Source: a virus. Taken from it: a stretch of DNA of 64,000 nucleotides. The translations under genes were made by a program, and so were the position numbers. Where the stretch lies: the IMG/VR virus record IMGVR_UViG_3300043446_000435, positions 1 through 64,000 of that record; one strand, written 5' to 3'. Below are positions 4,707-52,940 of this stretch, in pieces; the stretch's first letter is position 1; every line of letters starts with the position of its first letter. A model generated the notes under the pieces. The model searched no databases. It was given only the letters and a program-made list of their open reading frames with translations, and was not told the origin of the DNA.

Positions 4707-4712
4707 GAATCT

Positions 4713-7690: not shown

Positions 7691-7693
7691 GCG

Positions 7694-8039: not shown

Positions 8040-8042
8040 AGT

Positions 8043-8504: not shown

Positions 8505-9021
8505 TGATAGAGGGACCTTGACATTTCTTGTCAATGAGTATAATATAAAGTCATTCCTTGATATCGGATGCGGTCCAGGCGGAATGGTCCAACTGGCTAA
8601 GTGGCGTGGGCTTGATGCGATGGGAATCGACGGCGACTGGGAAGTTCGTAAGGAACAAGATGCGAAAGTTCTTATTCACGACTACACAACTGGTCCTGCG
8701 CCGCTTGAACAGGCTTCACTTCGCACAGAGTTTGATCTTGGTTGGTCTGTAGAGTTTCTTGAACACGTCGAAGAAAAGTATCTAGAAAACTATATGCAGG
8801 ACTTCGCTCGTTGTAAGTATGTTGTTTGCACTGCTGCTGGTCCTGGTGCTCCAGGTCATCATCATGTGAACTGTCAGCCAGAATCATATTGGCACGAAGT
8901 GTTTAATAAGTATGGTTTCGATTATGATGATGAAGTGACACAACGTATCCGCACACAAGAATCAACTATGCAAAAGCCGTTCATGCAACGCACAGGTATG
9001 TTCTTTAAGAGGAGACACTAA
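8413..9021 (+). CDS. class I SAM-dependent methyltransferase (start uncertain)
   Basis: FLDIGCGPG, FDL..SVEFLEHV, HHVNCQ. Confidence 0.8.
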   Translation: MGSGIVDQNTSEVNQDSLPSHLGGHLNKTHNDRGTLTFLVNEYNIKSFLDIGCGPGGMVQLAKWRGLDAMGIDGDWEVRKEQDAKVLIHDYTTGPAPLEQASLRTEFDLGWSVEFLEHVEEKYLENYMQDFARCKYVVCTAAGPGAPGHHHVNCQPESYWHEVFNKYGFDYDDEVTQRIRTQESTMQKPFMQRTGMFFKRRH

Positions 9022-10458: not shown

Positions 10459-11184
10459 ATGAAACTCTTTGCATCATGTGACTCTGGTTATCTTCGCGCG
10501 CACGCGCCCGCGCTCGTAGCTTCTGCTGCTTGTGCGGAAACCTCACTTCATCTTCATGTGATTGAACCACAAGATGATGACTTGGATTTCTTGGATCATC
10601 TCTCGTCGAGATACCACAAAATCGCTGGATGGCCACAGAGCGACTTCACGCATTCAACTGCTCCTATGTGGATGAGATATCCAGCAGTTCGTGATGATAC
10701 GATGCGAACGATATATGCTACAGATCGTTTCCTTTCTGTTATGACTCAGATGATTGCACGACCTGATCAGTATCTCATTATCGACACTGACTGTCTCATC
10801 ATGAAGCCTATCACAGAAAGCGACTTGCATGGTGACGTTGGTTTGTTCCTTCGTGAACCGTTGCCAGGAACTGTTGGATGGGAAGCACAAGGTACTCGTT
10901 GCGCAGCTGGTGCAGTTTACTATTCGTCTCGTGCGATGGACTTTGCTCAAGAAGTTGCAGCTCGTATTCGTAAAGGTCCGATCGCTTGGTTCCTAGATCA
11001 AGTTGCGATCAGTGAAACATACGAGAACATGAAAGATCGTTATAACTATCAATACTTCGATGCGAACTTTATGGATTGGGAGTTCAAGGAAGGAACGACG
11101 ATCTGGACTGGTAAGGGTCCGCGCAAGTATGACAATCCAACTTATCTTACAAAGAAAAACCACTTCGACAGGATGATTCGTTGA
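10459..11184 (+). CDS. nucleotide-diphospho-sugar transferase-like protein
   Basis: IIDTD (DxD), WFLDQ, IWTGKG. Confidence 0.65.
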   Translation: MKLFASCDSGYLRAHAPALVASAACAETSLHLHVIEPQDDDLDFLDHLSSRYHKIAGWPQSDFTHSTAPMWMRYPAVRDDTMRTIYATDRFLSVMTQMIARPDQYLIIDTDCLIMKPITESDLHGDVGLFLREPLPGTVGWEAQGTRCAAGAVYYSSRAMDFAQEVAARIRKGPIAWFLDQVAISETYENMKDRYNYQYFDANFMDWEFKEGTTIWTGKGPRKYDNPTYLTKKNHFDRMIR

Positions 11185-12137
11185 AAGTAGCTATTCTATT
11201 CCCACGCCTTGACGTTACATTCAAGGAAGGACCAGTTCCTGAAGCTCGCGGAGCAATCCCACCTATTCGTGTTCACTGGCAGCGTATGGGTGATCGTTTG
11301 CTTACTGCGCATAGAGTCAAGGGTGATACCGTTGACTTTATTGAAAAGCCACTCTGGCAGTTTACTCCAGAGTTCGTAGAGTCGCTTGATGCAGATATCG
11401 TTTACATTCCGCATAAGTCGACGGATACGTTCCCAGTCTTTAATAAGGAAGTCCGTTATTATATGCAATCAGTGTTCCCGTGGCAGTTCTACATCGACTC
11501 TAAGGGATTTGCTGGCGGCGCTTCGTTCTATCCGCTTACGATTGATCGCGAGCGTGAGATTCCTGCGGGAAGTTTCTACTCTCAGATGCAAGCTCGAGCA
11601 GCTCTTGGGGAAAGTAAGTTTGAACAGCCGCCTAGTCAGAAACTGAATCTACCTGATGAGTTTTTCTTCTTTCCGTGTCAGATACCACACGATGAAACGA
11701 TCAAATATCACTCAGATGTATCAGTTTTAGATGCTCTTGTTGCTACCTGTAGAGCCACCGAAAGACTAAATAAGATACTAATCGTAAAAGGCCATCCCGT
11801 GAATCCTGGTAGTATGGCCCCGCTGTATCAAGCAGCAACCCAGTTTAAGAATGTTATCTGGGTAAACGACATTTCCATCCACGACCTAATCCCCCATGCA
11901 AAAGCTGTAATCGTTGTTAATTCGGGAACGGGTATGGAAACAATGCTACATAAGACACCGATTGTTACATTCGGTAGATGTGAGTATGATTGTGTGAGTA
12001 ATAAAGCTACGACTGATAACATCGTCGATATCCTACAGGATCCTAAGTTCGACGAGAAAGCTGTACGAGCGTTTTTCGAGTCATGGTATGAAATTACCTA
12101 CGACACAAGAAGCAGTAAATCTTTCGAACGACTTTAG
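11181..12137 (+). CDS. KpsS/KpsC-like capsule polysaccharide (beta-Kdo transferase-like) protein
   Basis: FPCQIPHD, VKGHP, VIVVNSGTGMET, PIVTFG motifs. Confidence 0.7.
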   Translation: MKVAILFPRLDVTFKEGPVPEARGAIPPIRVHWQRMGDRLLTAHRVKGDTVDFIEKPLWQFTPEFVESLDADIVYIPHKSTDTFPVFNKEVRYYMQSVFPWQFYIDSKGFAGGASFYPLTIDREREIPAGSFYSQMQARAALGESKFEQPPSQKLNLPDEFFFFPCQIPHDETIKYHSDVSVLDALVATCRATERLNKILIVKGHPVNPGSMAPLYQAATQFKNVIWVNDISIHDLIPHAKAVIVVNSGTGMETMLHKTPIVTFGRCEYDCVSNKATTDNIVDILQDPKFDEKAVRAFFESWYEITYDTRSSKSFERL

Positions 12138-12146
12138 GAGAATGAA

Positions 12147-12512
12147 ATGGCATATTGGGGTTATCACTTAATTCTTGATTGCGCAGAACTTGATGGTCGC
12201 GCGATCACCGACTACGATACGATTTATCGTTTCACGAAGCAGCTAGTCGCAGACATCGACATGGTTGCTTACGGCGAACCCCAGATCGTAAACTTTGGAT
12301 CTGGTAACAAGGCTGGATATACTCTTGTTCAGCTGATTGAAACGTCAAACATCTGCGCTCACTTTGTGCCAGATGACGGTATGGGTGGCAACGCAATGTA
12401 TCTTGACGTTTTCTCTTGTAAGGAGTATGATGATCAGGTTGTTATCAATCTGGTTAAGCAATACTTTGGCGCTAAGTATGTGCGCCCGAACTATCTAACT
12501 CGACAAGCCTAA
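12147..12512 (+). CDS. speD: S-adenosylmethionine decarboxylase proenzyme
   Basis: GYHLILD, LIETSNICAHF, YLDVFSCK. Confidence 0.85.
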   Translation: MAYWGYHLILDCAELDGRAITDYDTIYRFTKQLVADIDMVAYGEPQIVNFGSGNKAGYTLVQLIETSNICAHFVPDDGMGGNAMYLDVFSCKEYDDQVVINLVKQYFGAKYVRPNYLTRQA

Positions 12513-12524
12513 TAGGAGTGAATA

Positions 12525-13136
12525 GTGATTATGTCAGCTGATGATTTTGACGATTACGATAATTGGGAAGTTAAGCAACACGCTCGCGTGAGCAAGAAGA
12601 GGATCGGTTCAATTGTTCCTGCTGTTTCGTTTAAGATCCGCGTTCGCGACGACAGTATCGAGGGACCCAATCCTTATCGTTGGGATGATCTGACTTCTTA
12701 TCAGATCTTCGGCGGTAAGCGTGTGATTGTGTTCTCGCTTCCTGGCGCGTTTACGCCAACCTGTTCGACGATGCAGCTGCCTGGATTCGAAACGATGTAT
12801 GACGAGTTCAAGCAGAAGCACAGCATCGACGAAATCTATTGTTTGTCTGTGAATGATGCGTTCACGATGAATGCTTGGGCTAAAGCTCAGGGAATCAAGA
12901 ACGTAAAGGTTATTCCAGACGGCAATCTTGAGTTCACGCAGAAGATGCGTATGAGCGTAGACAAGAGTAATCTTGGCTTTGGTGATCGTAGCTGGCGTTA
13001 TGCTATGATTGTCAACGATGGAAAAGTTGAAGCTTGGTTCGAAGAGCCTGGATTCAGCAACAACTGCGAGACTGATCCTTATGGTGAAACGTCTCCAGAA
13101 AATATCATGAACTGGCTTGACAGTCAGGGTAGTTGA
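12525..13136 (+). CDS. peroxiredoxin (Prx5-type)
   Basis: FSLPGAFTPTCS, SVNDAF, RSWRYAMIV. Confidence 0.92.
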   Translation: MIMSADDFDDYDNWEVKQHARVSKKRIGSIVPAVSFKIRVRDDSIEGPNPYRWDDLTSYQIFGGKRVIVFSLPGAFTPTCSTMQLPGFETMYDEFKQKHSIDEIYCLSVNDAFTMNAWAKAQGIKNVKVIPDGNLEFTQKMRMSVDKSNLGFGDRSWRYAMIVNDGKVEAWFEEPGFSNNCETDPYGETSPENIMNWLDSQGS

Positions 13137-13145
13137 TAGTATAAT
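13117..13145 (+). promoter_or_regulatory. sigma70-type promoter for tRNA-Gly
   Basis: TTGACA-17nt-TATAAT. Confidence 0.75.
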
Positions 13146-13159
13146 GAAAAATAGGAATT

Positions 13160-13234
13160 GCGGGTATAACTCAGGGGTAGAGTGTCAGCCTTCCAAGCTG
13201 TTCGTCGCAGGTTCGAATCCTGTTGCCCGCTCCA
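13160..13234 (+). tRNA. tRNA-Gly(TCC)
   Basis: Cloverleaf, loop CTTCCAA, GTTCGAATC, CCA. Confidence 0.95.
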
Positions 13235-13347
13235 AACTTCACGAATGGTGGGAAATCATCGTGGCCATAGCCATCTGTAATTGGATGGCATTGACTGCAG
13301 GCATCGTCCTGTTACTGTATAATGTGCTAACCAACTAAGGAGTAAAA

Positions 13348-14718
13348 ATGAAAAATACACTTACAGCTCTGGCGCTTCTTGCCTCGACCAGCCTCGCTGG
13401 TGCGGTAGATCTGCCATCTGGAAAGGCTCAACCACAAGCACCAGCAAATTATGTTAAGGTGTGTGATGCTTATGGTTCTGGCTTTTTCTATATTCCTGGA
13501 ACTGATTCATGCTTGCGTGTTGGCGGTATGGTTCGACAGGATTTTGCTTATGTCCCTGCGGGTGACACATATAAGGTAACAGCTGGTGCTCGTGCTATCA
13601 ACACATACGGCGCTGGTCAGAATACAACGGGATGGGAAACTCGTGGTCGTATTGATCTCGATGCTCGCACTCCAACCGACTTCGGCACTGTAAGAACTGC
13701 TGCTGGTATTCGTTTCTCGCGTTCATCAGGCACTCTTGCTGACGTAGCAAATCCATCAGGTGCTTCGCAGTCTGCAACGACTACGACTCCTATCATGGAA
13801 TATGCTTACATCCAGTTCGCTGGTATCACTGCTGGTGCTGCACGAGACAACTTCTCGTTCATGCCTTCAGCTGTTTACTCAGCACAGCACTGGGCTTCGT
13901 TCATCATCAATCCTAAGCAGCTTTCTTATACTGCCATTCTTGGTGGCGGTCTGAGTGCAACAGTTGCTGTTCAGGATGCTACTGATACAGCGATTGCTCC
14001 AGTCGATGGCGTAAATGCTACGACGACTTACTATGCTCCACAGAACGAAAAGAATCTTACTCTCGTAGGTAATCTCCGTTGGGATCAGCCTTGGGGTCAG
14101 GTTCAGGTTATGGGTGCTGGTCGTCAGGCACAAGTTCTTGACACAACTGGTCTAACATACAATCAGACAAAGAGCGTATGGGCAGCTGGCGGTGGTCTCA
14201 AGATCAACACTCCATTCACTGGTAATCAGCAGAACGCTCTGTGGCTTACAGCAGCTTATGCCGACGGTATGACTGAATACACTACAGCATACGGTTCGAA
14301 CAAGATTGCTAACTGGAAGCGTGATCTCAATGGTTGGCAGATGAATCAGCCTTCGATCATTGCTTACAGCACTGGTATCGAGTCTGTTAAGTCTTGGAAC
14401 GCTGCTGCTCTGTATCAGCATTGGCTGACTGACAAGTATCGTATCAATGCGTTTGGTTCATACGGTCAGATTCAGGCTCCAGAATCAGCTAAGGCTTTGG
14501 TGTTCGACGCTAAGAAGGGCTTCGGTGACGCTACTGTTTGGTCAGTCGGTTCAAACTTCGCTTGGCTTCCTACAAAGGACTTCGAGCTTGGCATTGAAGG
14601 TATCTACTCAAACATGAAGCAAGACATCCGTTATACACTCGCTTCTTCAACGAATAAGGTTGAAAGAGAAAGCGATAATAACTGGACGATGCGTCTTCGT
14701 GCTGAACGTCGCTTCTAA
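13348..14718 (+). CDS. alphaproteobacterial porin (Omp2b/RopA family)
   Basis: Signal peptide; YVKVCDAYGSGFFYIPGTDSCLRVGG; C-terminal ERRF. Confidence 0.9.
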   Translation: MKNTLTALALLASTSLAGAVDLPSGKAQPQAPANYVKVCDAYGSGFFYIPGTDSCLRVGGMVRQDFAYVPAGDTYKVTAGARAINTYGAGQNTTGWETRGRIDLDARTPTDFGTVRTAAGIRFSRSSGTLADVANPSGASQSATTTTPIMEYAYIQFAGITAGAARDNFSFMPSAVYSAQHWASFIINPKQLSYTAILGGGLSATVAVQDATDTAIAPVDGVNATTTYYAPQNEKNLTLVGNLRWDQPWGQVQVMGAGRQAQVLDTTGLTYNQTKSVWAAGGGLKINTPFTGNQQNALWLTAAYADGMTEYTTAYGSNKIANWKRDLNGWQMNQPSIIAYSTGIESVKSWNAAALYQHWLTDKYRINAFGSYGQIQAPESAKALVFDAKKGFGDATVWSVGSNFAWLPTKDFELGIEGIYSNMKQDIRYTLASSTNKVERESDNNWTMRLRAERRF

Positions 14719-32864: not shown

Positions 32865-33115
32865 TCTGGTCTAAACCTGAATTGGCTGAAATGTTGCGTT
32901 CTAGTGTTCTTGAGGTATCGTTCACTAAGAAAGATGGCTCAGGGCGTGTTATGAACTGCACGTTGCAGGAAAAGTATCTGCCACCGCTTATGGAAGATAC
33001 GGAAGTCGCTACCAAGGATAATCCAAATGTGCTTGCTGTTTGGGATATAGATAATAGTGGATGGCGTTCATTCCGTATCAATTCTATTGTTGACGTGAGG
33101 ATTGTAAATGACTAA
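32861..33115 (+). CDS. SH3/WYL-like fold protein
   Basis: FTKKDG..R.M.CTL ... WD....GWRSFR. Confidence 0.7.
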   Translation: MIWSKPELAEMLRSSVLEVSFTKKDGSGRVMNCTLQEKYLPPLMEDTEVATKDNPNVLAVWDIDNSGWRSFRINSIVDVRIVND

Positions 33116-34106
33116 ACTGAATATCACTGGGTTGAAAGAATCATCTCAGTCGCTCGAGCCGAAGGATCTTGATCCTGCTAACAATGGCACATACGAGCAT
33201 ATTGGTTCGCAGGGTGGAACTGAACAGATGGTAGCTGGACTGCGTCAGCGTCTGCCAGCAGATCTGCTTGATAAGTTCAATATCATCTGCTCGCGCGTGC
33301 GTGACGAAAATATCAGCAAGACTAAGAAAAACATTCTGTGGTTGCACGATACCTGGGATGATCCAGAGTCGCAGCATCTGAGGGATAAGAAATCGCTAGA
33401 GCGTTTTGAGAAGTTGATTTTCGTGTCGAACTATCAGCAGTCGACATATAACATTGGGCTCGACGTTCCCTACGACAAGGGTATCGTGATGCAGAATGCA
33501 ATCGTTCCTATTGAGCAGCATCAAAAGCCAAAGGGCACGATCAACATTATCTATCATACGACACCACATCGTGGGCTTGAAATTCTTATTCCTGTCTGTG
33601 AGTTTCTTGCTAATCGTGGTTTAGATTTTCATCTCGACGTTTACTCGTCATTTGGTATCTACGGTTGGCCGCAGCGCGATCTACCTTATCAGTCAATGTT
33701 CGAGAAGATCAAGAATCATCCCAACATGACTTATCATGGATGGCAGCCGAACTCTGTCATTCGCGAAGCTCTGAAGAAAGCTCACATCTATGCGTATCCG
33801 AGCATCTGGCCAGAGACTTCAGGTATCTCAGTCATCGAAGCTATGAGCGCTGGTTGTAATGTGATTTGTCCTTCATTGGCTGCATTGCCTGAGACTTGTG
33901 CGAACTTCGCAGTCATGTATGGCTGGACTGAAAACAATAACAAACACGCCAATCAGTTTGCTGGTCTGCTGAATATGGTGATCGAGCAATACTGGGCAGA
34001 GTTCAATCAGGAACGACTCAAGTTCCAAAAAGCCTATTTCGACACCTTCTATAATTGGGATATGCGAGCCCGCCAATGGGAAGATCTGTTGACTTCGATG
34101 GCTTGA
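33108..34106 (+). CDS. GT-B glycosyltransferase (GT4-like)
   Basis: GGTE, WLHD, P.RGL, YPSIWPET..IS.IEAMSAG. Confidence 0.85.
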   Translation: MTKLNITGLKESSQSLEPKDLDPANNGTYEHIGSQGGTEQMVAGLRQRLPADLLDKFNIICSRVRDENISKTKKNILWLHDTWDDPESQHLRDKKSLERFEKLIFVSNYQQSTYNIGLDVPYDKGIVMQNAIVPIEQHQKPKGTINIIYHTTPHRGLEILIPVCEFLANRGLDFHLDVYSSFGIYGWPQRDLPYQSMFEKIKNHPNMTYHGWQPNSVIREALKKAHIYAYPSIWPETSGISVIEAMSAGCNVICPSLAALPETCANFAVMYGWTENNNKHANQFAGLLNMVIEQYWAEFNQERLKFQKAYFDTFYNWDMRARQWEDLLTSMA

Positions 34107-38044: not shown

Positions 38045-38615
38045 TACAAACAAATGTATGGCTACGATTGTAGAAAAGATTGAAGCACAAACCACAAAAG
38101 AACGACAAGTCGACTTTCTAAAGCTGCATAGTTCTTATGCTCTTAAGGCTGTTCTCGGCTATGGTATGGATCCAGGCGTGAAGTGGTTGCTTCCAGATGG
38201 CGATCCGCCGTATCGTCCACTTTTCGATGCTTCAGACCAGGAAGGTCGTTTCTATGTCGAATGTAAGAAACTGATTTACTTCGTTGATAGCCCAGAAGGA
38301 CGTGAAGTAAAGCAATTGAAGCGTGAACAGCTGTTCATTCAAGTTCTCGAGTCGATTGATGCGCGCGATGCAAAGCTGCTTCTTCGTATGAAAAATCGTC
38401 AGATTAAGATTATGCCAGAAGCCATCGCAGAAGCGTTTCCTAATCTATGGGAAGCATGGGGTCGGAACGTGGCAAAGCCTGTCGCTCCGCTTCCTCCAGT
38501 AGTGCAGGAGGTAGAACTTGACGACTCTACGTTTCCGGAATATAATGAATCTCAAGTTCCTGTCAAACGTGGGCGCGGTCGTCCGAAAGGTTCTACTAAG
38601 AAGGCGGTAGCATGA
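38034..38615 (+). CDS. conserved T4-like protein with C-terminal AT-hook
   Basis: LPDGDPPY, KREQLFIQ.LE; KRGRGRPKGS. Confidence 0.65.
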   Translation: MALDTNKCMATIVEKIEAQTTKERQVDFLKLHSSYALKAVLGYGMDPGVKWLLPDGDPPYRPLFDASDQEGRFYVECKKLIYFVDSPEGREVKQLKREQLFIQVLESIDARDAKLLLRMKNRQIKIMPEAIAEAFPNLWEAWGRNVAKPVAPLPPVVQEVELDDSTFPEYNESQVPVKRGRGRPKGSTKKAVA

Positions 38616-39190
38616 ATACGGCATTTATCATTGGTAACGGTACGAGCCGCAAAGGCTTTGATCTTACTCGTCTGAAACAATACGGCACGGTGTTTGGTTG
38701 CAATGCGCTTTATCGTGATTTCCCTGATTACTCTCTTCCTGATTTCCTCGTTAGTATTGATGACGGTATTATTGCAGAAATAGAATCGTCATCATTCCCT
38801 TCCAAGCGTTTCATCGTTCCGCCTATCGAAGAACGATGGGAGCCTGCTGAAGCCAATCCTCGTCGTCCTCGTAGCAACGCTGGTATCAATGCTATGCGTG
38901 AAGCGATCAAGATGGGATACAATCAGCTGATTTGTCTTGGTTTTGATTTCATGGTTCATGATGCGAAACAGTCTGTTTCTAACGTCTATGACGGTACAGA
39001 TAACTACGGCATGGAAGTTCGTGCGCGAGCGGAGGATAATCCTGGGCGTGTGAACTATCTTCAGTGGCTTGTTGCAAGTAATCCTAGCGTAGACTTTATC
39101 TTTATCTTCCCAGAAGATGTGACTGTTTCGACACTCATTGGAAAAAACGTATTCGTGAACTCCTATGAGAATCTCCTAAAGCATACATAG
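38612..39190 (+). CDS. DUF115/sialyltransferase-like fold protein
   Basis: AFIIGNGTSR, GCNA.YRD, LGFD. Confidence 0.55.
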   Translation: MNTAFIIGNGTSRKGFDLTRLKQYGTVFGCNALYRDFPDYSLPDFLVSIDDGIIAEIESSSFPSKRFIVPPIEERWEPAEANPRRPRSNAGINAMREAIKMGYNQLICLGFDFMVHDAKQSVSNVYDGTDNYGMEVRARAEDNPGRVNYLQWLVASNPSVDFIFIFPEDVTVSTLIGKNVFVNSYENLLKHT

Positions 39191-39209
39191 TAGCAGAAGG
39201 AGGATATCC

Positions 39210-40595
39210 ATGGTTAAACAGATTTTTCTCGAACGTTCTGATGTAGGTAAGATGGAGCATGTTCTAGGTAAGTTCCTGGATCATGACTGCTACGACATCG
39301 TTCTTAATGAAGATACAGATGTCTATGAGCCACTGACTCCATTGCAGATTGCTATGGGTGAAACTCATAGTGAAAAGAACATCCTTTGCAAGTTTCGCAA
39401 GAATGTGTTCCCTAAAGAAATGACAGACGCAGCCTATGTCGCGCTTCGTTCTGGCGCTCTTATGTCGGACAATCGCGGGCTTGCTGCTGGTATTGAACGC
39501 GACACAGAGTTCCAGAAACTACCAGACGGTCAAGGTTCTCGTCGTTGGGTTACACAGCGCGAAAAGGCTATCTTGCAGTATATCATGGACGGTAGTCCTA
39601 AGTCGATTACTGGTGAAGATAGACTTCTTGAGATCTACGAAACTACGCCAAACAAACCATTGCAAGGTCGTGGCTCTGGAGCCAACAAAGCTGTAGCTGA
39701 AATTGGTGCTGGTGCTATCTGGATCGTTCACAAGACTACAGAGTTCAACTTCGACGATTGGTTCTTTAGCATTAAAGATCTTGACGCTGACGGACGTAGA
39801 GATAAAGCGCAGTATGTTCTTGACGAGTTGATTTCTGCTTCTACATATGCTAACGGTGTTCGTTCTGGTGTCGGTGGATTCATGGATCGTTATCCACGTA
39901 TCCCATTCTGTCGTGAAACTGGCTGGAGTGCGAATCATAAGCATCTATACGAAGATGCTCTTCCATTGTTCCAAGCTGCTGCTAATGTGTTCAAGAACGA
40001 GCTTCCTACACGATACATTGGTCAGATGGAAGCTATGGAAAAGCTAGGATCAGATTGGCAAATTGGTAATACGCCTTACACAACTTTGACGATCAATCGC
40101 GACTTCCGCACAGCAGCGCATCGTGACGTTGGTGATCTATGTGAGTCATGGGAGTCGCACGAAAACCCACGTGGCTTTTCGAATCTGCTTGTGTTAGATA
40201 ATGGTAAAGAATATGATGGTTTCTATCTGTGTTTCCCCGAGTTTCGCGTAGCAGCTAACATTCGTGCTGGTGATATGATTCTCATGAACGCTCATAGAAT
40301 CCACAGCAACTCACCTTCGTTCAATTACGAAGAAGGGTTCGAGCGTATGTCAGTCGTGATGTATTTCCGTGAGTCTATGCTTGAGTGTGGCTCTAAGAAA
40401 TATGAAGAAACTCGTAAGAACTTTGTCTATATGCGCCGTGACGATAAAACTCATCCTCTGTGGCATAGTGGATGGAACGGCGTATCGCCTGGAATGTGGG
40501 ATACTGAAGAGTGGGCGAACTATCTTGGTCACAACGGATTCCACGAAGAAGCAAATGAGTTGCTACATAAGTTAGGGCTTGAGCCAACACACTAA
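39210..40595 (+). CDS. TET/JBP-family 2OG-Fe(II) dioxygenase
   Basis: TINRDFRTAAHRDVGD (HxD), H.HSNS, ERMSVVMYFRE. Confidence 0.85.
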   Translation: MVKQIFLERSDVGKMEHVLGKFLDHDCYDIVLNEDTDVYEPLTPLQIAMGETHSEKNILCKFRKNVFPKEMTDAAYVALRSGALMSDNRGLAAGIERDTEFQKLPDGQGSRRWVTQREKAILQYIMDGSPKSITGEDRLLEIYETTPNKPLQGRGSGANKAVAEIGAGAIWIVHKTTEFNFDDWFFSIKDLDADGRRDKAQYVLDELISASTYANGVRSGVGGFMDRYPRIPFCRETGWSANHKHLYEDALPLFQAAANVFKNELPTRYIGQMEAMEKLGSDWQIGNTPYTTLTINRDFRTAAHRDVGDLCESWESHENPRGFSNLLVLDNGKEYDGFYLCFPEFRVAANIRAGDMILMNAHRIHSNSPSFNYEEGFERMSVVMYFRESMLECGSKKYEETRKNFVYMRRDDKTHPLWHSGWNGVSPGMWDTEEWANYLGHNGFHEEANELLHKLGLEPTH

Positions 40596-40609
40596 CATAA
40601 GGATTCGTC

Positions 40610-42172
40610 ATGTATTGTGTGATTCCTGCGGCAGGACGCGGTGTTCGTTTCAACGAACTAGGTAAAAACTATCCTAAATGCGTCCTGCCGTATCAGGACA
40701 TTCCGATCATTGTTCACAACATTCGTCTTGCGCTCGAGAGCGGTGCTCGTGAAGTTGCTATCGTGGTTGGACATCAGGCTAACAAGATTCGCGAGATCGT
40801 TGGGATGTATTTTCCTGACGATCCGCGCATTCGTTTCGCAGACTACCAACAGGCTGCTGGAAAAGATGGTCCTGGTGTTTCGATCTATTGTGGTATACCT
40901 AACGATATCGGCGAAGAGCCAATTCTAGTTCTGCTTTCAGATATCGTTGTTCATAATGTCGTTTGCTTTGCTGACATGAGAACATCTTGGATAACAACAC
41001 AGAAAGTTCCTGATTGGGAACGCTGGTGTATGGTAGAAACGAAAGATGGAACTGTCGTAGAGTTTCATGATAAGCCTCGCGATATGCCTCCGACTAATCT
41101 TGCAGTTAGCGGAGTCTATTATTTCACAGATGCGTCTTGGTTTCGCAGCTGTATGATTGATGCGATTCACGGGACACGTCAAGGCGAAGTTCAAATCTCT
41201 TCTGCGATGTCGCGTTACATGAAAAAGAACTCGATCTATACGAAGTCAGTCAAGATTGTTGACTTTGGTACTTTGCAGGAGTATCTTGAGAATCGTGGTG
41301 TGAAGAACTCGCGTTCGTTCAATACGCTGTTTCCATCTCCAGACGGCTCGACGATTACCAAAACTTCTGTCGTGCAGCCTGAGAAAATTCATGCTGAAGC
41401 GAACTGGTACGACAATCTTCCGACTCCTATCAAAGTGATGACGCCACGTATCTTTGACAAAAAGCTGTATGGTGATCGTCCGACTTATACGATGGAACGT
41501 GTTGATAGCCCTACTCTGCGTGAGCTTTATCTGTATCTAGAATCTGATCCTATCTTCTGGGCTGAGATTTACACGAAGCTGTTCCAGCTGACGGATAAGT
41601 TCAAGTTCTACTTCAAGCCTGGAAAACCTCAGTTCTTTAATCAAGTCGTCAAGAAAACGTTCGACAGATACGATGCGATTCGTGATGGTATTCTAGAAGA
41701 TGAAGATTACGACTTCATTGATAAGTTTGCTCGTATGGTAAGAGCAAGCGAGTTTGAAGTTTTCCCCGATTCACTATATCATGGTGATCTTTGCTTCTCA
41801 AACATTTTCTATCATCCAGGAAGCAAGCAGATCAAGATGATTGATCCTCGTGGCGAAGCGTATGGTAACATTCTGTATGACTTGGCTAAGATTACTCACT
41901 CTGCCTACTATCCATACGATTATGTTGATGCCGAGCTGTATCTCACCAAAGATGGGCAAACTATCTACTTCGATGCTGGCAAAGAACAAGCCCGCCACGC
42001 ATATAAGACTCTTTTTGTAGATAAATATGGCGAAGAAACGTGGCGTCTAACTTTGTTCTTGACAGCTTCGCTTTTTTTGAGTATGATACCTTTACATGAT
42101 CACAATGAAAGGAATCAGGAGTTATATTATGCCCTCTATCGTAAGGCGCGCTCAGACGCCGGATTTGTTTGA
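40610..42172 (+). CDS. sugar nucleotidyltransferase fused to APH/choline-kinase-like kinase
   Basis: IPAAGRGVRF...PKC, DFGT; HGDLCFSNI, MIDPRG, YDLAK. Confidence 0.85.
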   Translation: MYCVIPAAGRGVRFNELGKNYPKCVLPYQDIPIIVHNIRLALESGAREVAIVVGHQANKIREIVGMYFPDDPRIRFADYQQAAGKDGPGVSIYCGIPNDIGEEPILVLLSDIVVHNVVCFADMRTSWITTQKVPDWERWCMVETKDGTVVEFHDKPRDMPPTNLAVSGVYYFTDASWFRSCMIDAIHGTRQGEVQISSAMSRYMKKNSIYTKSVKIVDFGTLQEYLENRGVKNSRSFNTLFPSPDGSTITKTSVVQPEKIHAEANWYDNLPTPIKVMTPRIFDKKLYGDRPTYTMERVDSPTLRELYLYLESDPIFWAEIYTKLFQLTDKFKFYFKPGKPQFFNQVVKKTFDRYDAIRDGILEDEDYDFIDKFARMVRASEFEVFPDSLYHGDLCFSNIFYHPGSKQIKMIDPRGEAYGNILYDLAKITHSAYYPYDYVDAELYLTKDGQTIYFDAGKEQARHAYKTLFVDKYGEETWRLTLFLTASLFLSMIPLHDHNERNQELYYALYRKARSDAGFV

Positions 42173-42521
42173 AAACAGCCTCGTCGTCGACTTGGATCAC
42201 ACGCTCTGCGTTGGTGATCTAGGTATCGAAAGTTCTCTCATCCGCTACGCAACTGCAAAACCAATCCCAGAAACTATTCAGAAACTCCGCGAAGCTCACA
42301 AGAAAGGATGGTATATCACTATCCTTACTGCGCGTCATATGCGTTCTTGTAACAACGATGCAGAGTTTGCTTTCAACAAGCTCGGTCAGGTCACTGCTGA
42401 CTGGCTGGATCAACACAATGTTCCCTTCGATCAGCTAGTCTTTGGTAAGCCATATGGTATGTGGTATATCGACGATAAGGCAATGACCTTGGATATGTTC
42501 CTCAATGACTTCACCGCTTAA
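42129..42521 (+). CDS. HAD phosphatase (capsule-biosynthesis phosphatase type)
   Basis: DLDHTL, TAR.M, GKP, YIDDKA. Confidence 0.85.
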   Translation: MPSIVRRAQTPDLFENSLVVDLDHTLCVGDLGIESSLIRYATAKPIPETIQKLREAHKKGWYITILTARHMRSCNNDAEFAFNKLGQVTADWLDQHNVPFDQLVFGKPYGMWYIDDKAMTLDMFLNDFTA

Positions 42522-43341
42522 GATTATCATCACTACGTTCATGCGCGAGCAGCAACAGAGGGCTATCCATCAGATCCCGAAGTCGTTGCACGATCGCGTG
42601 TATATGTTCACGCGAGAAGATCGCGTAGAGGAGCTCCGTAAGCATGTTCCAGACACGATCAATATCATCGGCAATCCTATGGACATTGATGGGATTGCTG
42701 ATATCCGTCAGCGTTGCATTGATCATCCGCTAGTAGGTAAAGGTAAGGTCTGGTTCATTGACGATCTAGTCACGTTTGGCTGGCGCAACGAACAGATGAA
42801 ACAGTTCAACGGAATGGAAGAAACCGAATGGTTGAAAATGTATCAGATGGTCGAGACGCTGCTCGACGACTATATGCAAGTGGGCTTTTCTGCTCGTGGT
42901 GGAAACAATCACGTCGAGGAAGATACGAAAGAAGTCGGGAGAGCCTACACGACTTACGGGCTTCGCACAGACTTGATGCTGAAAGAGGGAATTCGCTTCG
43001 ACGGTATGTATCAGCTAAATAAAGAAGTCAAGCTCTACGAAGATTACTGGATCACACTACGGATGCTGACCAGCGGTTTCAAGAACTGCATCATCTATAA
43101 GTATTTCTTCAACTACACCCACAACAACGCGGGCGGTAACTCTACGTTCCGAACACTAGAGCTTCAGGAACAAGCCGCCCTCGAACTCAAGAAACATTTC
43201 CCACAATTCGTAACAGTAGAAACCAAGGAAGGTGCTTGGGGTAAGATGGGTATGGAGAATCGTAAAGAAGTTCGTATCCAATGGTTGAAGGCGTATCAAA
43301 GTTCTCAGTTTACAAACAATCTCGAAGAGTTCTTCGGATAA
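42505..43341 (+). CDS. TET-associated (TAGT/GREB1-like) glycosyltransferase
   Basis: I..IRQ, WFIDD, YED..TLR.L..G.KN, GGNS..RT. Confidence 0.75.
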   Translation: MTSPLKIIITTFMREQQQRAIHQIPKSLHDRVYMFTREDRVEELRKHVPDTINIIGNPMDIDGIADIRQRCIDHPLVGKGKVWFIDDLVTFGWRNEQMKQFNGMEETEWLKMYQMVETLLDDYMQVGFSARGGNNHVEEDTKEVGRAYTTYGLRTDLMLKEGIRFDGMYQLNKEVKLYEDYWITLRMLTSGFKNCIIYKYFFNYTHNNAGGNSTFRTLELQEQAALELKKHFPQFVTVETKEGAWGKMGMENRKEVRIQWLKAYQSSQFTNNLEEFFG

Positions 43342-43354
43342 GAAGGGAAAGCAT

Positions 43355-43702
43355 ATGGACTATACTCAATATATCGTCAACATCGCAGTGGTTGCTTCTA
43401 GCTGGATGATAGGTATATTTCTTGCACGTTTCGTTCTGCGTCGTTTCTTTGGTGTAAATCCAGAAGGTCCAGAAATGATGGGTGGTGGCGTAACGACGGA
43501 TGACGTTCTTGCTATCGACAAAGCAGAAATGCCATACATTCCTGTTAAGATCACTAAAGAACATGGTATCTACTATGCTTGGTTCACGAACAATGACAAG
43601 TTTATCGGACAAGCAGAAAAGGTAGAAGAACTTGAAATGATGGCTTATCGTCATCTCATGAAGCTCGTGAATCTTCGTATGGAAATCAAGGTGGATGAGT
43701 AA
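43355..43702 (+). CDS. membrane-anchored hypothetical protein
   Basis: N-terminal TM. Confidence 0.55.
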   Translation: MDYTQYIVNIAVVASSWMIGIFLARFVLRRFFGVNPEGPEMMGGGVTTDDVLAIDKAEMPYIPVKITKEHGIYYAWFTNNDKFIGQAEKVEELEMMAYRHLMKLVNLRMEIKVDE

Positions 43703-44354
43703 AGTAGCAATTATCACAGGCGCAACTAGCTGGATGGCTCTTGCGACTCATTACAAGCTGACAGACATGGGCTGGACTACAGTTCTCTGTTCGCATCAAG
43801 ATATGGATGTTGATAATCCCGAAGCAGTTTATGAATACTTCGACAAGCAGATCAAGTTCTATGGTCAGATCCACGCGGTAGTCAACATCGCAGGTAAGTC
43901 TTTAGAAAAGATGTTTCATGAAACGACTCCAGAAGAATTCGACGATATCCTCGGCGCAAATTTTAGAGGCGTTATCAATACGACTCGCGCGATCCTTCCG
44001 CACTTCATGGAGAACTATGAAGGCAATATCGTAGGCATCGTTTCTAAAGGAGCATACTGTGGGTTCCCACGAAAAAGCGCATACTCAACCGCAAAAGCAG
44101 CAATCAATATCTTCATCAAAAGTATTGCGCAGGAATACGGCTCATACAACATTCGTGCCAACACTATCTTGCCAGGATACACTAAAAATAAACGTCACTC
44201 GAAACCCAACCCGTCTTTCAGTCATGCTTCCCCGCTAGGACGTATCACTTATCCAGAAGATGTAGGTAAAGCTGTTGGATTCTTGTTATCTGACGATGCA
44301 TCGCACATCACTGGTTCGTGCTTGGACATCTCAGGCGGAACTGCACTACACTAG
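43695..44354 (+). CDS. short-chain dehydrogenase/reductase
   Basis: ITGA, VNIAG, YSTAK, IRAN.I.PG, PLGR. Confidence 0.88.
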   Translation: MSKVAIITGATSWMALATHYKLTDMGWTTVLCSHQDMDVDNPEAVYEYFDKQIKFYGQIHAVVNIAGKSLEKMFHETTPEEFDDILGANFRGVINTTRAILPHFMENYEGNIVGIVSKGAYCGFPRKSAYSTAKAAINIFIKSIAQEYGSYNIRANTILPGYTKNKRHSKPNPSFSHASPLGRITYPEDVGKAVGFLLSDDASHITGSCLDISGGTALH

Positions 44355-44363
44355 GAGAAAGAA

Positions 44364-44948
44364 ATGAAAGAACGTTATATGAAGCTATGGGCTACGCCTG
44401 TCGCTATCTTCAAGCATCCAGACTACAAAGCCCTCAACGCAGAGCTGATGTCAGCCGAGCAGGTGAAGAAACTTCGTGGTATGAACTTCATGAGCAAGCG
44501 AGACGCATGGGATCTTGTTGATGAGATTCCTGCCATGAAAGAACTGCATCGCTGGAAGCTAGAGTGCGCAGCCAAGTATGCGTCGAAGTGTTTCAACGTA
44601 GAATATAAGCCAGACTACTTCTTTCACACGCATGGCTCGATCAATTTCCGTGGTAAGGATGAAGAAGCGCCACTTCATACACATCGCCTGACGACTATCG
44701 TGACGACATACTATGTGGACGTCTTTGACGACTGCGGCGACATTCGACTCATCGATCCGCGCAGCACACTAGGCTGGATCAGTTTGGACAAGAAGGGATA
44801 CAACCAGTATACCCACAGCCCATCGAACGGCGAGATGATCATGTTCCCAGGCTGGGTGACTCATGCCGTGCTACACAACAAGACGGACAGGGAACGAGTG
44901 GCGCTTACCGGCAACATTCGGCTCAAGCCCGAGTTCGAGGTATTCTAA
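44364..44948 (+). CDS. 2OG-Fe(II) oxygenase-like (TIGR02466-type)
   Basis: HTH, DPR, MFPGW..HAV, RVA..GN. Confidence 0.8.
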   Translation: MKERYMKLWATPVAIFKHPDYKALNAELMSAEQVKKLRGMNFMSKRDAWDLVDEIPAMKELHRWKLECAAKYASKCFNVEYKPDYFFHTHGSINFRGKDEEAPLHTHRLTTIVTTYYVDVFDDCGDIRLIDPRSTLGWISLDKKGYNQYTHSPSNGEMIMFPGWVTHAVLHNKTDRERVALTGNIRLKPEFEVF

Positions 44949-49469: not shown

Positions 49470-49678
49470 TGGACACAGTTCGTATTGAAATGATGATATG
49501 CAATGCGCAAGGGAGTGTCATACAGAACTGGACTACGATGCAAGGTAGTATTGAGAACAATCCGCAAATATATGTGCCTAGAGCTACAGCCCTGCAAGAT
49601 TCACAATCAGGAACGAATTATGCTCGAGTGCGCGTAGTCAGTGAACAAACCAATCGAATCGTGGATATATTTACATGA
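49469..49678 (+). CDS. hypothetical protein
   Basis: Coupled ORF. Confidence 0.45.
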   Translation: MDTVRIEMMICNAQGSVIQNWTTMQGSIENNPQIYVPRATALQDSQSGTNYARVRVVSEQTNRIVDIFT

Positions 49679-50157
49679 GTGAAGACATGAAAGATTTCTG
49701 GGAAAGCATTGAACGCATTCAGAAAGCGTTCAAAGAAATCGACGCAGAGCACGCCAAGATGGCAGATGAATGCGATCCAGAACTCAAGCTTGCTGTGACT
49801 AAATGGGTGATGAAGCATATCGTCGAGCATGCGCGCGAGGGAGGCAGCTATCGCTATCTCATCTATGATCGACTAGGCTTTGGTCCAGAAGCATACGCTC
49901 CGCTCTGCTCTGATGGTATGACTATCAGCAACGAGTTTGATCTTAATACGGTTCCTGACGCTCGCGAAGCACTAGCGGCTGGCGATCACGAAAAGCTGAA
50001 GGAAGTATTGAGTTGCTGCGACGAGCCAGGATGCTACAATCAAATCAGCGCTGGTTTTCCGACTGACAATGGATATCGTCGCACCTGCGGTGAACACTAC
50101 AGAATGTATAGCGAAAAACATCAGGAGAGAAAGAATGGCAATGCATCTGAGTCTTGA
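49675..50157 (+). CDS. hypothetical protein with Cys/His cluster
   Basis: CDEPGC...CGEH. Confidence 0.55.
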   Translation: MSEDMKDFWESIERIQKAFKEIDAEHAKMADECDPELKLAVTKWVMKHIVEHAREGGSYRYLIYDRLGFGPEAYAPLCSDGMTISNEFDLNTVPDAREALAAGDHEKLKEVLSCCDEPGCYNQISAGFPTDNGYRRTCGEHYRMYSEKHQERKNGNASES

Positions 50158-50374
50158 TATTGATTACGAACTTGCTGATCGGATTACTGTAGCCAATCTA
50201 AAAGATTGCTATCAGCGTCTTGGTAATGAAATCAAAGACGTAAAGGCGATTGAGAACAAAGAAAGATGGCATCTTGAAGATCTTGAGGACTTTAAGAGAA
50301 ACCGTAAGGCTATCAAAAAGACGCTGAGATATTTCTTGACGGCTCAAGAAGCGAAGGAGTTTTTTAATGAGTGA
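50135..50374 (+). CDS. hypothetical protein
   Basis: AGGAG RBS. Confidence 0.5.
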   Translation: MAMHLSLDIDYELADRITVANLKDCYQRLGNEIKDVKAIENKERWHLEDLEDFKRNRKAIKKTLRYFLTAQEAKEFFNE

Positions 50375-50990
50375 TGATAAGTTTTTTGTTGTTGATGATG
50401 TGCTACCAGCTGCGCAGCACGAAAGACTATATCATTCTCTGCGAAAGTTGCCGTGGACTTCTGAATGGTCTTCTGCAATCGGTCGACTAGATTTTGCTTG
50501 GCATTGGAATCATACGTTCCACGAGTCGCGTCAGAATATGCCTGCCATGTCAGATGCAGAATATGAAGCGCTGAAAGTTCGATATCCGCTTATCGCTCCT
50601 CTGTGGGATAGAGCGAAAGAAATCGTAAAACAAAACATGGGTAAGTATGATATCCTTCGTTTCTATACCAACTGCAATCCCTATGGAACGAACGCATACA
50701 TCCACACAGATGATGGCGACTACACCATGATCTATTATCCTGCGCTGGAATGGAATCCGGAGTGGGAAGGTGGAACTTGTTTCTACAAGAAAGATGAGAA
50801 TGGAAATCACGACGCGATCAAATATGTTTCGTATAAGCCAAATCGTCTCGTTCTATTCCCTGCAAAGATTCCTCATCGAGGAATGCCTGTCGATAGGCAA
50901 TGCACCGCGCCGCGTTATGTTATCGCAATGAAACTGCAACGTGACGTTAACGATCCAAGCTATATGCGCGAATACTACAATAGAGGTTGA
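50367..50990 (+). CDS. 2OG-Fe(II) oxygenase (prolyl-hydroxylase-like)
   Basis: HTDD, W..EWEGGT, PNRLVLF...IPH, R..IA.K. Confidence 0.85.
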   Translation: MSDDKFFVVDDVLPAAQHERLYHSLRKLPWTSEWSSAIGRLDFAWHWNHTFHESRQNMPAMSDAEYEALKVRYPLIAPLWDRAKEIVKQNMGKYDILRFYTNCNPYGTNAYIHTDDGDYTMIYYPALEWNPEWEGGTCFYKKDENGNHDAIKYVSYKPNRLVLFPAKIPHRGMPVDRQCTAPRYVIAMKLQRDVNDPSYMREYYNRG

Positions 50991-51196
50991 TCATGGCTAA
51001 GAAAACTACGAATGAAGGATTCAACGTCAGTTATTACTGTCGCGATAAGAACACCAGCGACGATATCAAGAACGTCTCAATGAGTTGGGATAATCGTTCT
51101 ATTGACGAAATCCGCGAGAATCTTAACACATGGCTTATTGCTACTGGATATGGTGATTTGGTGGTTGTGCAGCAGGTGACAAAAGATGCAAAGTGA
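50987..51196 (+). CDS. hypothetical protein
   Basis: Coupled ORF. Confidence 0.5.
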   Translation: MIMAKKTTNEGFNVSYYCRDKNTSDDIKNVSMSWDNRSIDEIRENLNTWLIATGYGDLVVVQQVTKDAK

Positions 51197-51437
51197 TCTC
51201 GAACTCCTTGTAGAATACGATATGTTCGTAAACGGTTTCGATCCCGCTAACAAGGACGACATCATTGCGTATTGGGCTGCACTTCTTCAGTAAGTTTTGG
51301 CGTCTGTGGGCTAAAGCTCTCGGCAGAAAAGAAGGTATCACTGATAAAGAGTCGGATAGGGTTGCCCTTATCCGCACTCTAATCGTGCTATCGTATATCA
51401 TCACAAACATCTTTATCATAGCAGGCGTGATACGACA

Positions 51438-51677
51438 TTGGTAAGCAAGAAAGCAGAGTGGTGGTTTGAGTGGGGTTCAACAGCGATCCTCATTGTTGGC
51501 GTAGCTCTGACTGCGTGGAACATCTATCCGCTCAACGTCTGGTTCTCGCTCGCTGGTAACTTTGGCTGGTTCGTAGTGGGTTGGCTTTGGCGTAAGTGGT
51601 CACTCTTGACAATTCAGATCATAGTGAGTATAATATATCTAATGGGTCTAGCACAACACTATGGAGTATGGCTGTGA
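51438..51677 (+). CDS. small PnuC-like membrane protein
   Basis: 3 TM, IYPLN..F...GN.GW. Confidence 0.5.
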   Translation: MVSKKAEWWFEWGSTAILIVGVALTAWNIYPLNVWFSLAGNFGWFVVGWLWRKWSLLTIQIIVSIIYLMGLAQHYGVWL

Positions 51678-52354
51678 AAATTGGCATCATGTCAGACCTT
51701 CACATGTATAAGACTGTTCTGACTGAAGAGACGCCTTGGGATTTCGAGCCAGAGCCCGATGTGTTCTATATCTGCGCTGGTGATATCTGCGAAGATGACG
51801 ATGCTCGCGCTCGTTTTGTTCAGAAGCACTACGATCATATGTTTGCTATCAACGGCAATCACGATTACTATGGCGGATATTTCAGCGACGCTATCTATCA
51901 CACGCTCACGCGCGAAGTGAATGGTATCAAGATCGCTGGCGCAACGCTATGGACTGACTTATCAAAGTTTCTCGATTGGGTAATGTATGAGAACGGTCTC
52001 ATCGACTCTCGATATATCTCAGGAGTGACACATCAGCGTATGATGGAAACGCACAACGCACACAAGTATTTCTTGCTCAACAGCGAAGCTGATATCATTG
52101 TGTCGCATCACACTCCTTCATATCAATCTGTTCATGAGAAGTATCGTGGTAGCCCGTTCAATTCATCGTTCTCTAATAACATGGACGAGCAGATCCTTGC
52201 TATGAAGAAGCCGCCCAAGCTGTGGATTCACGGACATACTCACGATGAATTCGATTATATGATCGGCGAGACTCGTGTGATCTGCTGGCCTCGCGGCTAC
52301 AAGAACGAGCGCGACAACTATTGGAACTACAAACCAAAGATCGTGGAGATTTGA
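51674..52354 (+). CDS. calcineurin-like metallophosphoesterase
   Basis: SDLH, AGD, GNHD, SHH.P, WIHGHTH. Confidence 0.9.
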   Translation: MKIGIMSDLHMYKTVLTEETPWDFEPEPDVFYICAGDICEDDDARARFVQKHYDHMFAINGNHDYYGGYFSDAIYHTLTREVNGIKIAGATLWTDLSKFLDWVMYENGLIDSRYISGVTHQRMMETHNAHKYFLLNSEADIIVSHHTPSYQSVHEKYRGSPFNSSFSNNMDEQILAMKKPPKLWIHGHTHDEFDYMIGETRVICWPRGYKNERDNYWNYKPKIVEI

Positions 52355-52355
52355 T

Positions 52356-52940
52356 ATGAACAGATTTATCCTTGACAAAGATCCGCAAACTGCCGCAGAG
52401 TATCATTGCGACAAACACGTTGTCAAAATGATCCTCGAAGAATGTCAGATGCTTTGCACTGCGCATCGTATTCTTGACGGCGTAGAAACTTTGGGTAAGT
52501 CCAAAACTAATCGTAATGTCAAGCGTTGGATTCTTCCAGACGAACGCGAAACAGCTCTGTATCACGCCACTCATGTCAATCATCCTTGCACTCAGTGGTC
52601 GATGTTCACAACGAACAATTATACTTGGTCGGTATCATTGCTGCGTTGTTTGCTTGACGAGTATAAGTTTCGCTACAAGAAAGAGCATAAGTGCGAACAG
52701 CTATATCCGCTTCTCCAGCGGCTGCCGCACAATATCAAGTCTGGTCCGCTGACTCTATTTCCACAGGCTATGCCTGATGAATGTAAGCGCGAGCATCCAG
52801 TAGAAGGCTATCGTCAATACTATATAGATCACAAGGCGCGATTCGCAAAATGGACGGATCGGCCTGTACCGGAGTGGTTCACTTGTTCATCAAACTCACA
52901 AACACATCCGGCGACCACGCCGGAGAAAGTATATGGATAA
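52356..52940 (+). CDS. pyrimidine-dimer DNA glycosylase/endonuclease V-like
   Basis: DKHVVKMILE, HVNHPC..W, PQAMP, YRQYY. Confidence 0.8.
   Translation: MNRFILDKDPQTAAEYHCDKHVVKMILEECQMLCTAHRILDGVETLGKSKTNRNVKRWILPDERETALYHATHVNHPCTQWSMFTTNNYTWSVSLLRCLLDEYKFRYKKEHKCEQLYPLLQRLPHNIKSGPLTLFPQAMPDECKREHPVEGYRQYYIDHKARFAKWTDRPVPEWFTCSSNSQTHPATTPEKVYG

Follow-up and report, generated by a model that had tools for sequence, protein, structure and literature searches.

We analysed a candidate DNA hypermodification cluster that lies at positions 38612-43341 of a 64-kb stretch of viral DNA (hereafter the window). The window covers positions 1-64,000 of the 85,440-bp IMG/VR record IMGVR_UViG_3300043446_000435 (G000), whose CheckV completeness is 52%, about half a genome. 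The source phage is T4-like, and the record corresponds to positions 86,083-157,580 plus 1-3,129 of a relative, G001. The longest relatives carrying the same cassette are G001 and G004, with a completeness of 90% and 78%, respectively.

The five-gene cluster

The interval 38612-43341, given as five contiguous genes in an initial annotation made from the letters alone, is filled by five open reading frames on the plus strand that overlap or are separated by 14-19 nt. Megablast of the 4.7-kb cluster against GenBank phages gave no match. The five genes are the following:

g1, 38612..39190, plus strand: 192 aa, DUF115/MptE-like (GT42-like) fold, from a predicted structure and Foldseek
g2, 39210..40595, plus strand: 461 aa, long-form TET/JBP-family (5mYOX) Fe(II)/2-oxoglutarate dioxygenase, from Pfam Tet_JBP
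g3, 40610..42172, plus strand: 520 aa, bifunctional nucleotidyltransferase-kinase, AfhE-like, from NTP_transferase and an APH-fold model
g4, 42129..42521, plus strand: about 130 aa, small HAD-type phosphatase, AfhF-like, from PDB 1xpj and TIGR01689; overlaps the 3′ end of g3
g5, 42505..43341, plus strand: 278 aa, TET-associated glycosyltransferase (TAGT), predicted DNA glycosyltransferase, from Pfam TAGT

The initial annotation had proposed profile and structure searches for these genes. In our hands, Tet_JBP, NTP_transferase and TAGT scored above their Pfam curated cut-offs, whereas the kinase, the HAD protein and the DUF115-like protein were identified by fold or PDB matches.

The description of g2 as a dioxygenase with TET/JBP motifs was borne out by its score against Pfam Tet_JBP (PF12851; 53.8 bits, curated cut-off 34.9). 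Residues H304, D306, H365 and R379 are invariant in an alignment of 39 family members, and comparison of the family profile with human TET2 (E 4e-9) showed that the iron triad and the 2-oxoglutarate arginine match the HRD, H and RISLV (R-x-S) motifs of TET2. The protein also matches phrog_24024 (E 5e-103), and its family comprises 1111 cluster representatives at E≤1e-3. A search of the PDB with the single g2 sequence gave no match.

At 461 aa, g2 is a long form as compared to the characterised phage enzymes, which are about 290-300 aa long (PMC13229309). Its core, approximately residues 200-405, is the stretch that aligns with the usual 300-aa phage enzymes. We collected 85 distinct relatives of this long form (about 440-480 aa). 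On either side of this core, an extension of about 200 aa at the N-terminus and a tail of about 55 aa at the C-terminus are conserved in the Stenotrophomonas phage DLP_6, in the Caulobacter phage Cr30 and in many contigs, and a Pfam search at E≤10 returned no family for residues 1-200 or for the last 70 residues. The idea that the N-terminal 200 aa represent a fused ParB-like activator was considered and is unsupported by any Pfam match at the same threshold. ParB_N (PF02195) had no match elsewhere in G000, G001, G004, DLP_6 or Cr30, in a search that could miss the divergent published ParBs.

The homologues of g2 in DLP_6 and Cr30 are labelled 'SNF2 DNA repair protein' in GenBank, a label that probably comes from similarity to JBP2. 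The SNF2 domain is not present in g2.

We regard it as highly improbable that this oxygenase has a non-DNA substrate (RNA or free nucleotides, for example) or that the cluster is inactive. Such a reading could draw on the terminal extensions without known family, and on the observation that some clade C1/D enzymes are inactive in E. coli (PMC8256090). However, the invariance of the catalytic residues, the size and conservation of the family, and the fact that the neighbouring modules are all DNA-directed argue for an active, DNA-modifying enzyme.

The last gene of the string, g5, lies about 1.9 kb downstream of g2. Its assignment to the TAGT-type glycosyltransferases was confirmed by a Pfam score above cut-off (PF20691; 36.4 bits, cut-off 27.5), and it matches phrog_842 with an E-value of 1e-43. 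A PDB sequence search with g5 found no relative.

Sugar-activation genes and their precedents

The two genes between the oxygenase and the glycosyltransferase are predicted to activate a sugar. Residues 4-227 of g3 match NTP_transferase (40.2 bits, cut-off 21.2), with RmlA/GalU matches in the PDB. Residues 258-429 reach 16.6 bits against APH, below the cut-off of 23.2, and a profile of the kinase domain gave marginal matches only to PDB sequences (best E 0.0012). The kinase half was therefore assigned by its fold: an AlphaFold model of residues 232-520 (pLDDT 93.9) matches APH and choline/ethanolamine kinases (Foldseek E about 1e-6, probability 1.0, TMq 0.5-0.6). In agreement with the nucleotidyltransferase-kinase fusion proposed initially, g3 is divided into a sugar-1-phosphate nucleotidyltransferase, from residue 1 to about 230, and an APH-fold small-molecule kinase, from about 232 to 520. 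The fold places this kinase in the APH/choline-kinase class and designates no specific sugar kinase.

The Pfam match of g4 is weak. The HAD phosphatase assignment was nevertheless supported by matches to PDB 1xpj (E 7.5e-14) and to TIGR01689 (E 5e-17, under the curated cut-off), and g4 also matches phrog_1238 (E 5.5e-21). Its start at 42129, which has an AGGAG located 7 nt before it, is more likely than the alternative start at 42096, which gives a protein of 141 aa.

The initial annotation had compared these sugar genes to capsule and O-antigen loci. A closer precedent is found in phages. HY126, RB69 and DLP3 possess a pathway leading from ribulose-5-phosphate to UDP-D-arabinose for DNA arabinosylation (PMC13326640, NAR 2026). 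AfhE (DLP3 gp82) consists of an N-terminal nucleoside diphosphate (NDP)-sugar pyrophosphorylase and a C-terminal kinase, AfhF (DLP3 gp81) is a small HAD phosphatase, with 1xpj as its closest match in structure, and the third part of the pathway is a phage arabinose-5-phosphate isomerase; gp82 and gp81 are equated in that work with AfhE and AfhF of HY126. The profile of the g3 family aligned with gp82 of the Acinetobacter phage DLP3 over both domains (hhalign probability 99.5%, E 3e-22, 397 columns), the two proteins being 24% identical by BLASTP, and g4 is 29% identical to DLP3 gp81 (E 2e-9). The capsule analogy was abandoned in favour of this phage precedent.

A second precedent involves another sugar. 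A HAD-APH enzyme, a cytidylyltransferase and a glycosyltransferase were reported to put heptose on 5-hydroxymethylcytosine (5hmC) in E. coli (Pyle 2023, bioRxiv 10.1101/2023.12.21.572611). With arabinose in the case of AfhE/AfhF and heptose in the case of this trio, the family handles at least two sugars.

Recurrence and exchange of the cassette

The arrangement of the cluster is kept in close relatives, whose oxygenases are 62-89% identical to g2. The reverse order, TAGT-HAD-NTK-TET (NTK, nucleotidyltransferase-kinase), is found in six loci (L064-L067, L074, L076) besides that of the cultured phage DLP_6. On viral contigs, 46 of the 65 distinct homologues of the kinase domain have a HAD gene within 3.5 kb, and 22 of the 65 have a long-form oxygenase in the locus. 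Among loci that carry the fused NTK and lack the TET-type oxygenase, a thymidylate-synthase-family gene is present in 20; it connects to DLP3 gp80, and the copy in L057 scores 78 bits against PF00303. In either setting, the sugar pair adjoins an enzyme that modifies C5 of a pyrimidine, the oxygenase or the thymidylate-synthase-family protein. The recurrence in DLP_6 and the six loci, the thymidylate-synthase-family neighbours and the homology to the arabinosylating phages all support the initial proposal that the oxygenase, the NDP-sugar pathway and the TET-associated glycosyltransferase form one module.

The same observations bear on the possibility that the sugar genes and the glycosyltransferase act on a target other than DNA, such as a host envelope glycan or virion proteins, their adjacency to the oxygenase being a coincidence in a variable region. 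Sets of kinase, nucleotidyltransferase and HAD genes do occur in bacterial capsule loci, as do members of the 'capsule biosynthesis phosphatase' family TIGR01689; 5 kb upstream there is a gene for a GT1 glycosyltransferase, and the region is clearly a swap hotspot. However, the four genes remain grouped in two lineages that differ in gene order, and TAGT is defined, as its Pfam name indicates, by its TET association. Furthermore, the fused NTK neighbours thymidylate-synthase-family genes elsewhere, g3 is homologous to a DNA-arabinosylation enzyme of DLP3, and other cassettes that occupy this site modify DNA, with an amino acid:DNA transferase (ADDT). A non-DNA target seems to us very unlikely, and we retain a module directed at DNA.

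Exchange of the cassette is apparent in relatives whose oxygenases are 75-79% identical to g2, where the three genes after the oxygenase are replaced. The replacement in L011 and L027 consists of an NAD epimerase and one or two TAGTs. In L018, where the oxygenase is 75% identical, the replacement (positions 11379-13805) consists of a 257-aa protein without known family, an ADDT (74.6 bits) and a P-loop kinase of the Ploopntkinase3 family (46.2 bits), from which a base modification of the amino-acid type is predicted for this near-identical phage. We then counted the cassette types next to 50 of the 85 distinct long-form oxygenases, those with at least 3 kb on both sides:

ADDT and/or P-loop kinase: 15/50
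TAGT with NTK and HAD: 12/50, one of them also with an epimerase
TAGT only: 8/50
TAGT with epimerase: 6/50
Epimerase only: 3/50
ADDT with TAGT (Cr30): 1/50
None of these cassettes: 5/50

With Cr30 included, ADDT and/or P-loop kinase genes are found in 16 of these 50 well-flanked family members. Cassette types interleave in the oxygenase tree (quick maximum-likelihood search), and the clade of 16 that contains the window (support 100) is made up of 10 NTK, 4 epimerase and 2 ADDT rows. The module is best described as one interchangeable cassette, with sister phages keeping the oxygenase and swapping in an epimerase and TAGT or an ADDT and P-loop kinase.

The gene upstream of the oxygenase behaves differently from the cassette. 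No significant match of g1 to Pfam CST-I was obtained (E 0.022, 14.7 bits for a cut-off of 25, over 32 residues), and none of its top 120 homologues has a Pfam domain. Its AlphaFold2 model (pLDDT 89.5) has the sialyltransferase CST-II as best PDB match (Foldseek E 6e-3, probability 0.96, TMq 0.48) and matches viral proteins of the BFVD named DUF115 or MptE-like (E 4e-5 to 7e-5). In the protein atlas, the nearest named cluster (score 0.91) has PF01973 on 34% of its members. These fold matches lend tentative support to the DUF115/sialyltransferase-like fold suggested initially. Of 28 close loci, 26 have g1 upstream of the oxygenase, and the other two begin inside the oxygenase gene. The g1 gene is kept with sugar-type and amino-acid-type cassettes alike, is also present in a group at 54% identity with ADDT cassettes, and is absent from DLP_6-type clusters and from all more distant loci. 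Because g1 follows the oxygenase whatever the cassette and is missing from DLP_6-type clusters, a part for it in the sugar pathway, as a member of the operon proposed initially, is not supported. It may be an accessory of the oxygenase or a mere syntenic neighbour, and nothing links it to the sugar.

Several other genes flank the cluster. The GT1-family glycosyltransferase (332 aa) is encoded at 33108-34106 of the window and is probably outside the variable module, as it is conserved in relatives of every cassette type. On the 3′ side, positions 43695-44948 encode an SDR protein (FabG-like, 219 aa) and an oxygenase of the 2OG-FeII_Oxy_5 family (194 aa). These two genes were ruled out as cassette members, being found with ADDT-type relatives and absent from most relatives of the window type; L018-L020 and L028 are the relatives that have them.

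Related gene sets were observed in other viral genomes. At positions 6962-13435 of L002 (Caulobacter phage Cr30), the oxygenase is followed by ADDT and TAGT homologues and an annotated inositol-1-phosphate synthase, suggesting that this cultured phage may use a further type of modification chemistry. Locus L057 (positions 6445-13463), from a 205-kb viral contig, encodes in this order the thymidylate-synthase-family protein, a 181-aa protein, a HAD protein, an NTK, two unassigned proteins of 466 and 408 aa, and a DNA_methylase-family protein (weak match, 43 bits). The same set is seen in about 15 loci and seems to be related to the arabinosylation clusters, as a pre-replicative counterpart. L094 (positions 4045-11942) has no oxygenase nearby and carries a different set of sugar genes, for a methyltransferase, a nucleotidyltransferase with a fused DHBP-synthase (RibB-like) domain, a homologue of the g3 kinase as a separate protein, the small HAD protein, a transaldolase/FSA-like protein, an epimerase and a GT1. 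Finally, AAY80_029 of DLP_6 (L001, positions 5235-6926) was described as a ModA ADP-ribosyltransferase in the 2017 DLP6 paper, and is a hypothetical protein in GenBank and a homologue of g3; one of the two assignments is probably wrong.

Target base and proposed pathway

The initial annotation had noticed that no C5-methyltransferase is visible in the window and had kept thymine, by a route resembling that of base J, as a possible substrate for this reason. The absence was confirmed for the window and for the whole 85,440-bp record. The argument drawn from it does not hold, because the record is about half a genome and the missing half contains, in both G001 and G004, a PF00145 gene (G001, positions 51,010-52,053, 176.9 bits; G004, 174.1 bits). 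In G001 this gene is located about 65 kb from the oxygenase.

Thymine is nevertheless favoured on other grounds. Firstly, no C5-methyltransferase was found within 6 kb of the oxygenase in any of the 85 distinct long-form relatives (0/85), using one methyltransferase of the lineage as seed and three jackhmmer rounds. Secondly, the methyltransferase and the oxygenase occur independently. The methyltransferase belongs to a locus with a gp46-like nuclease, a peptide deformylase, the C5-cytosine methyltransferase itself (379 aa) and a 227-aa S-adenosylmethionine-methyltransferase-like gene (L031, positions 3-3260, equivalent to G001 49510-52770; also L197 and L201), and this locus is found in relatives whether or not they have the oxygenase. 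One of them, G009, whose 155-kb genome is complete and has terminal repeats, contains the locus, and no oxygenase was detected in it, with G000 and G001 as positive controls. Conversely, the complete genome of DLP_6, which has the same four genes, showed no match to PF00145 or PF00303; the DNA of this phage is listed as resistant to restriction enzymes in a review table (PMC8228603). Thirdly, ADDT and P-loop kinase genes alternate with the sugar cassette behind the oxygenase. T-dioxygenases have been demonstrated in phages, and P-loop kinases and AADTs have been linked to thymine hypermodification (PMC13229309, O'Toole 2026). If the pathway is real, we consider thymine to be its likely substrate.

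Homology and gene context make it probable that this T4-like phage uses the cluster for post-replicative DNA hypermodification, in which a base is oxidised and then receives a sugar made by the phage. The dioxygenase g2 would first hydroxylate a pyrimidine of the phage DNA at its C5-methyl group; thymine, giving 5-hydroxymethyluracil (5hmU), is a likelier target than 5-methylcytosine (5mC). The order of the following reactions is suggested by the homology of g3 and g4 to gp82 and gp81. The kinase domain of g3 would phosphorylate C1 of a host sugar phosphate, for which D-arabinose-5-phosphate (as for AfhE) and heptose-7-phosphate are candidates. The HAD phosphatase g4 would then strip the distal phosphate from the resulting bisphosphate, and the nucleotidyltransferase domain of g3 would form the NDP-sugar. 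Finally, the TAGT protein g5 would move the sugar onto the new hydroxymethyl group, which would shield the DNA from host nucleases. The product may be a new base.

Several observations weigh against this reading, either as a whole or in its choice of base and sugar. At 24% identity between g3 and DLP3 gp82, sugar specificity cannot be transferred from one to the other. No arabinose-5-phosphate or GmhA-type isomerase was found in G000, G001, G004 or DLP_6, unlike in DLP3 and RB69: neither SIS nor SIS_2 had a match over cut-off in G000, SIS had none in G001, G004 and DLP_6, and no homologue of DLP3 gp83 was found in any locus examined. The host must in that case supply the sugar phosphate from which the pathway starts, and the sugar may be a pentose or a heptose. 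As to the base, the C5-methyltransferases of G001 and G004, which have the same cassette, look intact, and the genome from which the window derives probably has one too, so that 5mC would be available in principle. The phage T-dioxygenases also oxidise 5mC (PMC13229309), and P-loop kinases were suggested to act possibly on 5hmC as well (PMC8256090, Burke 2021), so that the argument from ADDT and kinase genes is not airtight. Moreover, with no ParB_N match in the genomes searched, g2 does not fit cleanly into either of the published T-dioxygenase subclasses (C1, C2), and the oxygenase tree was obtained by a quick maximum-likelihood search.

Some of these points would fit the same pathway acting on cytosine. 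The distant methyltransferase, encoded about 65 kb away in the missing half of the genome, would make 5mC, which g2 would convert to 5hmC for glycosylation by g5, as for clade A/B TET enzymes. This version could explain why G001 and G004 combine the cassette with a PF00145 gene whose motifs look intact, it is in line with the sugar products of the 2023 preprint, which are all on 5hmC in the part available (10.1101/2023.12.21.572611), and it is compatible with the activity of phage T-dioxygenases on 5mC. It accounts poorly, however, for the 0/85 count, for the position of the methyltransferase in a conserved gp46-deformylase locus that persists in the complete, oxygenase-free G009 genome, for the four-gene set of DLP_6 in a genome without PF00145 match, and for the pairing of sister oxygenases with thymidine-type ADDT/kinase genes. 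We consider cytosine unlikely to be the target and prefer the thymine route.

A system of this kind is already known, from phage 5mYOX and glycosyltransferase clusters, from APH/HAD co-occurrence and from AfhE/AfhF sugar activation. Like the phage 5mYOX clusters (PMC8256090) and 'contig 53' (10.1101/2023.12.21.572611), the window combines a post-replicative oxygenase, a kinase/phosphatase/nucleotidyltransferase trio and a DNA glycosyltransferase, and APH and HAD are among the domains that co-occur with 5mYOX (PMC13229309, Fig. 9 legend). Contig 53, which produces heptosyl-5hmC, differs by description in having a HAD-APH enzyme and a separate nucleotidyltransferase, where the window has an NTK fusion and a separate HAD protein, and in using a transferase of GT-B fold instead of TAGT. 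In contrast to the 5mC-dioxygenases of clades A and B (PMC8256090), the window lineage has no adjacent cognate C5-methyltransferase, a property that it shares with the phage T-dioxygenases (PMC13229309).

Among the latter, g2 mixes traits of both subclasses, as far as these can be compared by description. It resembles the ParB-independent subclass C2 in its glycosyltransferase neighbours and, as far as the ParB_N search shows, in its lack of ParB, and the ParB-dependent subclass C1 in its C-terminal extension beyond the last conserved motif. The linkage to P-loop kinase/AADT genes, another C1 trait, is found in relatives (L018 and the other members of the 16/50) and not in the window itself. 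Unlike the published T-dioxygenases, g2 has the extra N-terminal stretch of about 200 aa, and none of the five genomes searched for ParB_N (G000, G001, G004, DLP_6 and Cr30) had a match.

With the AfhE/AfhF system of HY126, RB69 and DLP3, which makes arabinosylated 5-hydroxycytosine (PMC13326640), the window shares an NTK enzyme beside a 1xpj-like HAD protein, and with DLP3 it shares the gene order, NTK then HAD, and homology over both domains of the fusion. It differs from that system in that the base would be prepared by a DNA-level oxygenase and not by a thymidylate-synthase-like dCMP hydroxylase, in the absence of a phage arabinose-5-phosphate isomerase, in identities of 24-29%, and in its use of TAGT where the transferases of that system were modelled on GT-B-type structures.

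The predicted product can also be compared to a eukaryotic base. In kinetoplastids, base J is made by JBP1/2 and a glucosyltransferase. If thymine is the substrate, the window would follow the same chemistry, conversion of T to 5hmU in DNA and then O-glycosylation. It would differ from the base J system in a phage-made sugar that is probably other than glucose, in its bacterial host and in the absence of an SNF2 domain.

More tentatively, the product could be a glycosylated 5hmU carrying phage-made arabinofuranose or heptose, a non-glucose counterpart of base J, with the long-form oxygenase serving as a fixed platform behind which sugar and amino-acid cassettes are exchanged like serotype genes. 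No such base was found in the available parts of the related literature. Within the same literature, we did not find a description of a DNA-level oxygenase that is combined with TAGT and an AfhE/AfhF-type pair, or of the long-form oxygenase and the one-site cassette exchange in near-identical T4-like phages. If this possibility is correct, a single 5hmU handle would give chemically different genomes in near-identical phages.

The cluster joins two published themes, the DNA-level TET/JBP oxygenase and an AfhE/AfhF-type pair known from pre-replicative 5-hydroxycytosine systems. The cultured phage DLP_6, with the same four genes and DNA listed as restriction-resistant (PMC8228603), provides a concrete experimental handle. 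Phage DNA that is hypermodified withstands restriction enzymes and certain CRISPR nucleases, and is a source of new DNA-modifying enzymes. The swapping of cassettes behind a conserved oxygenase suggests a route to fast diversification of phage DNA chemistry.

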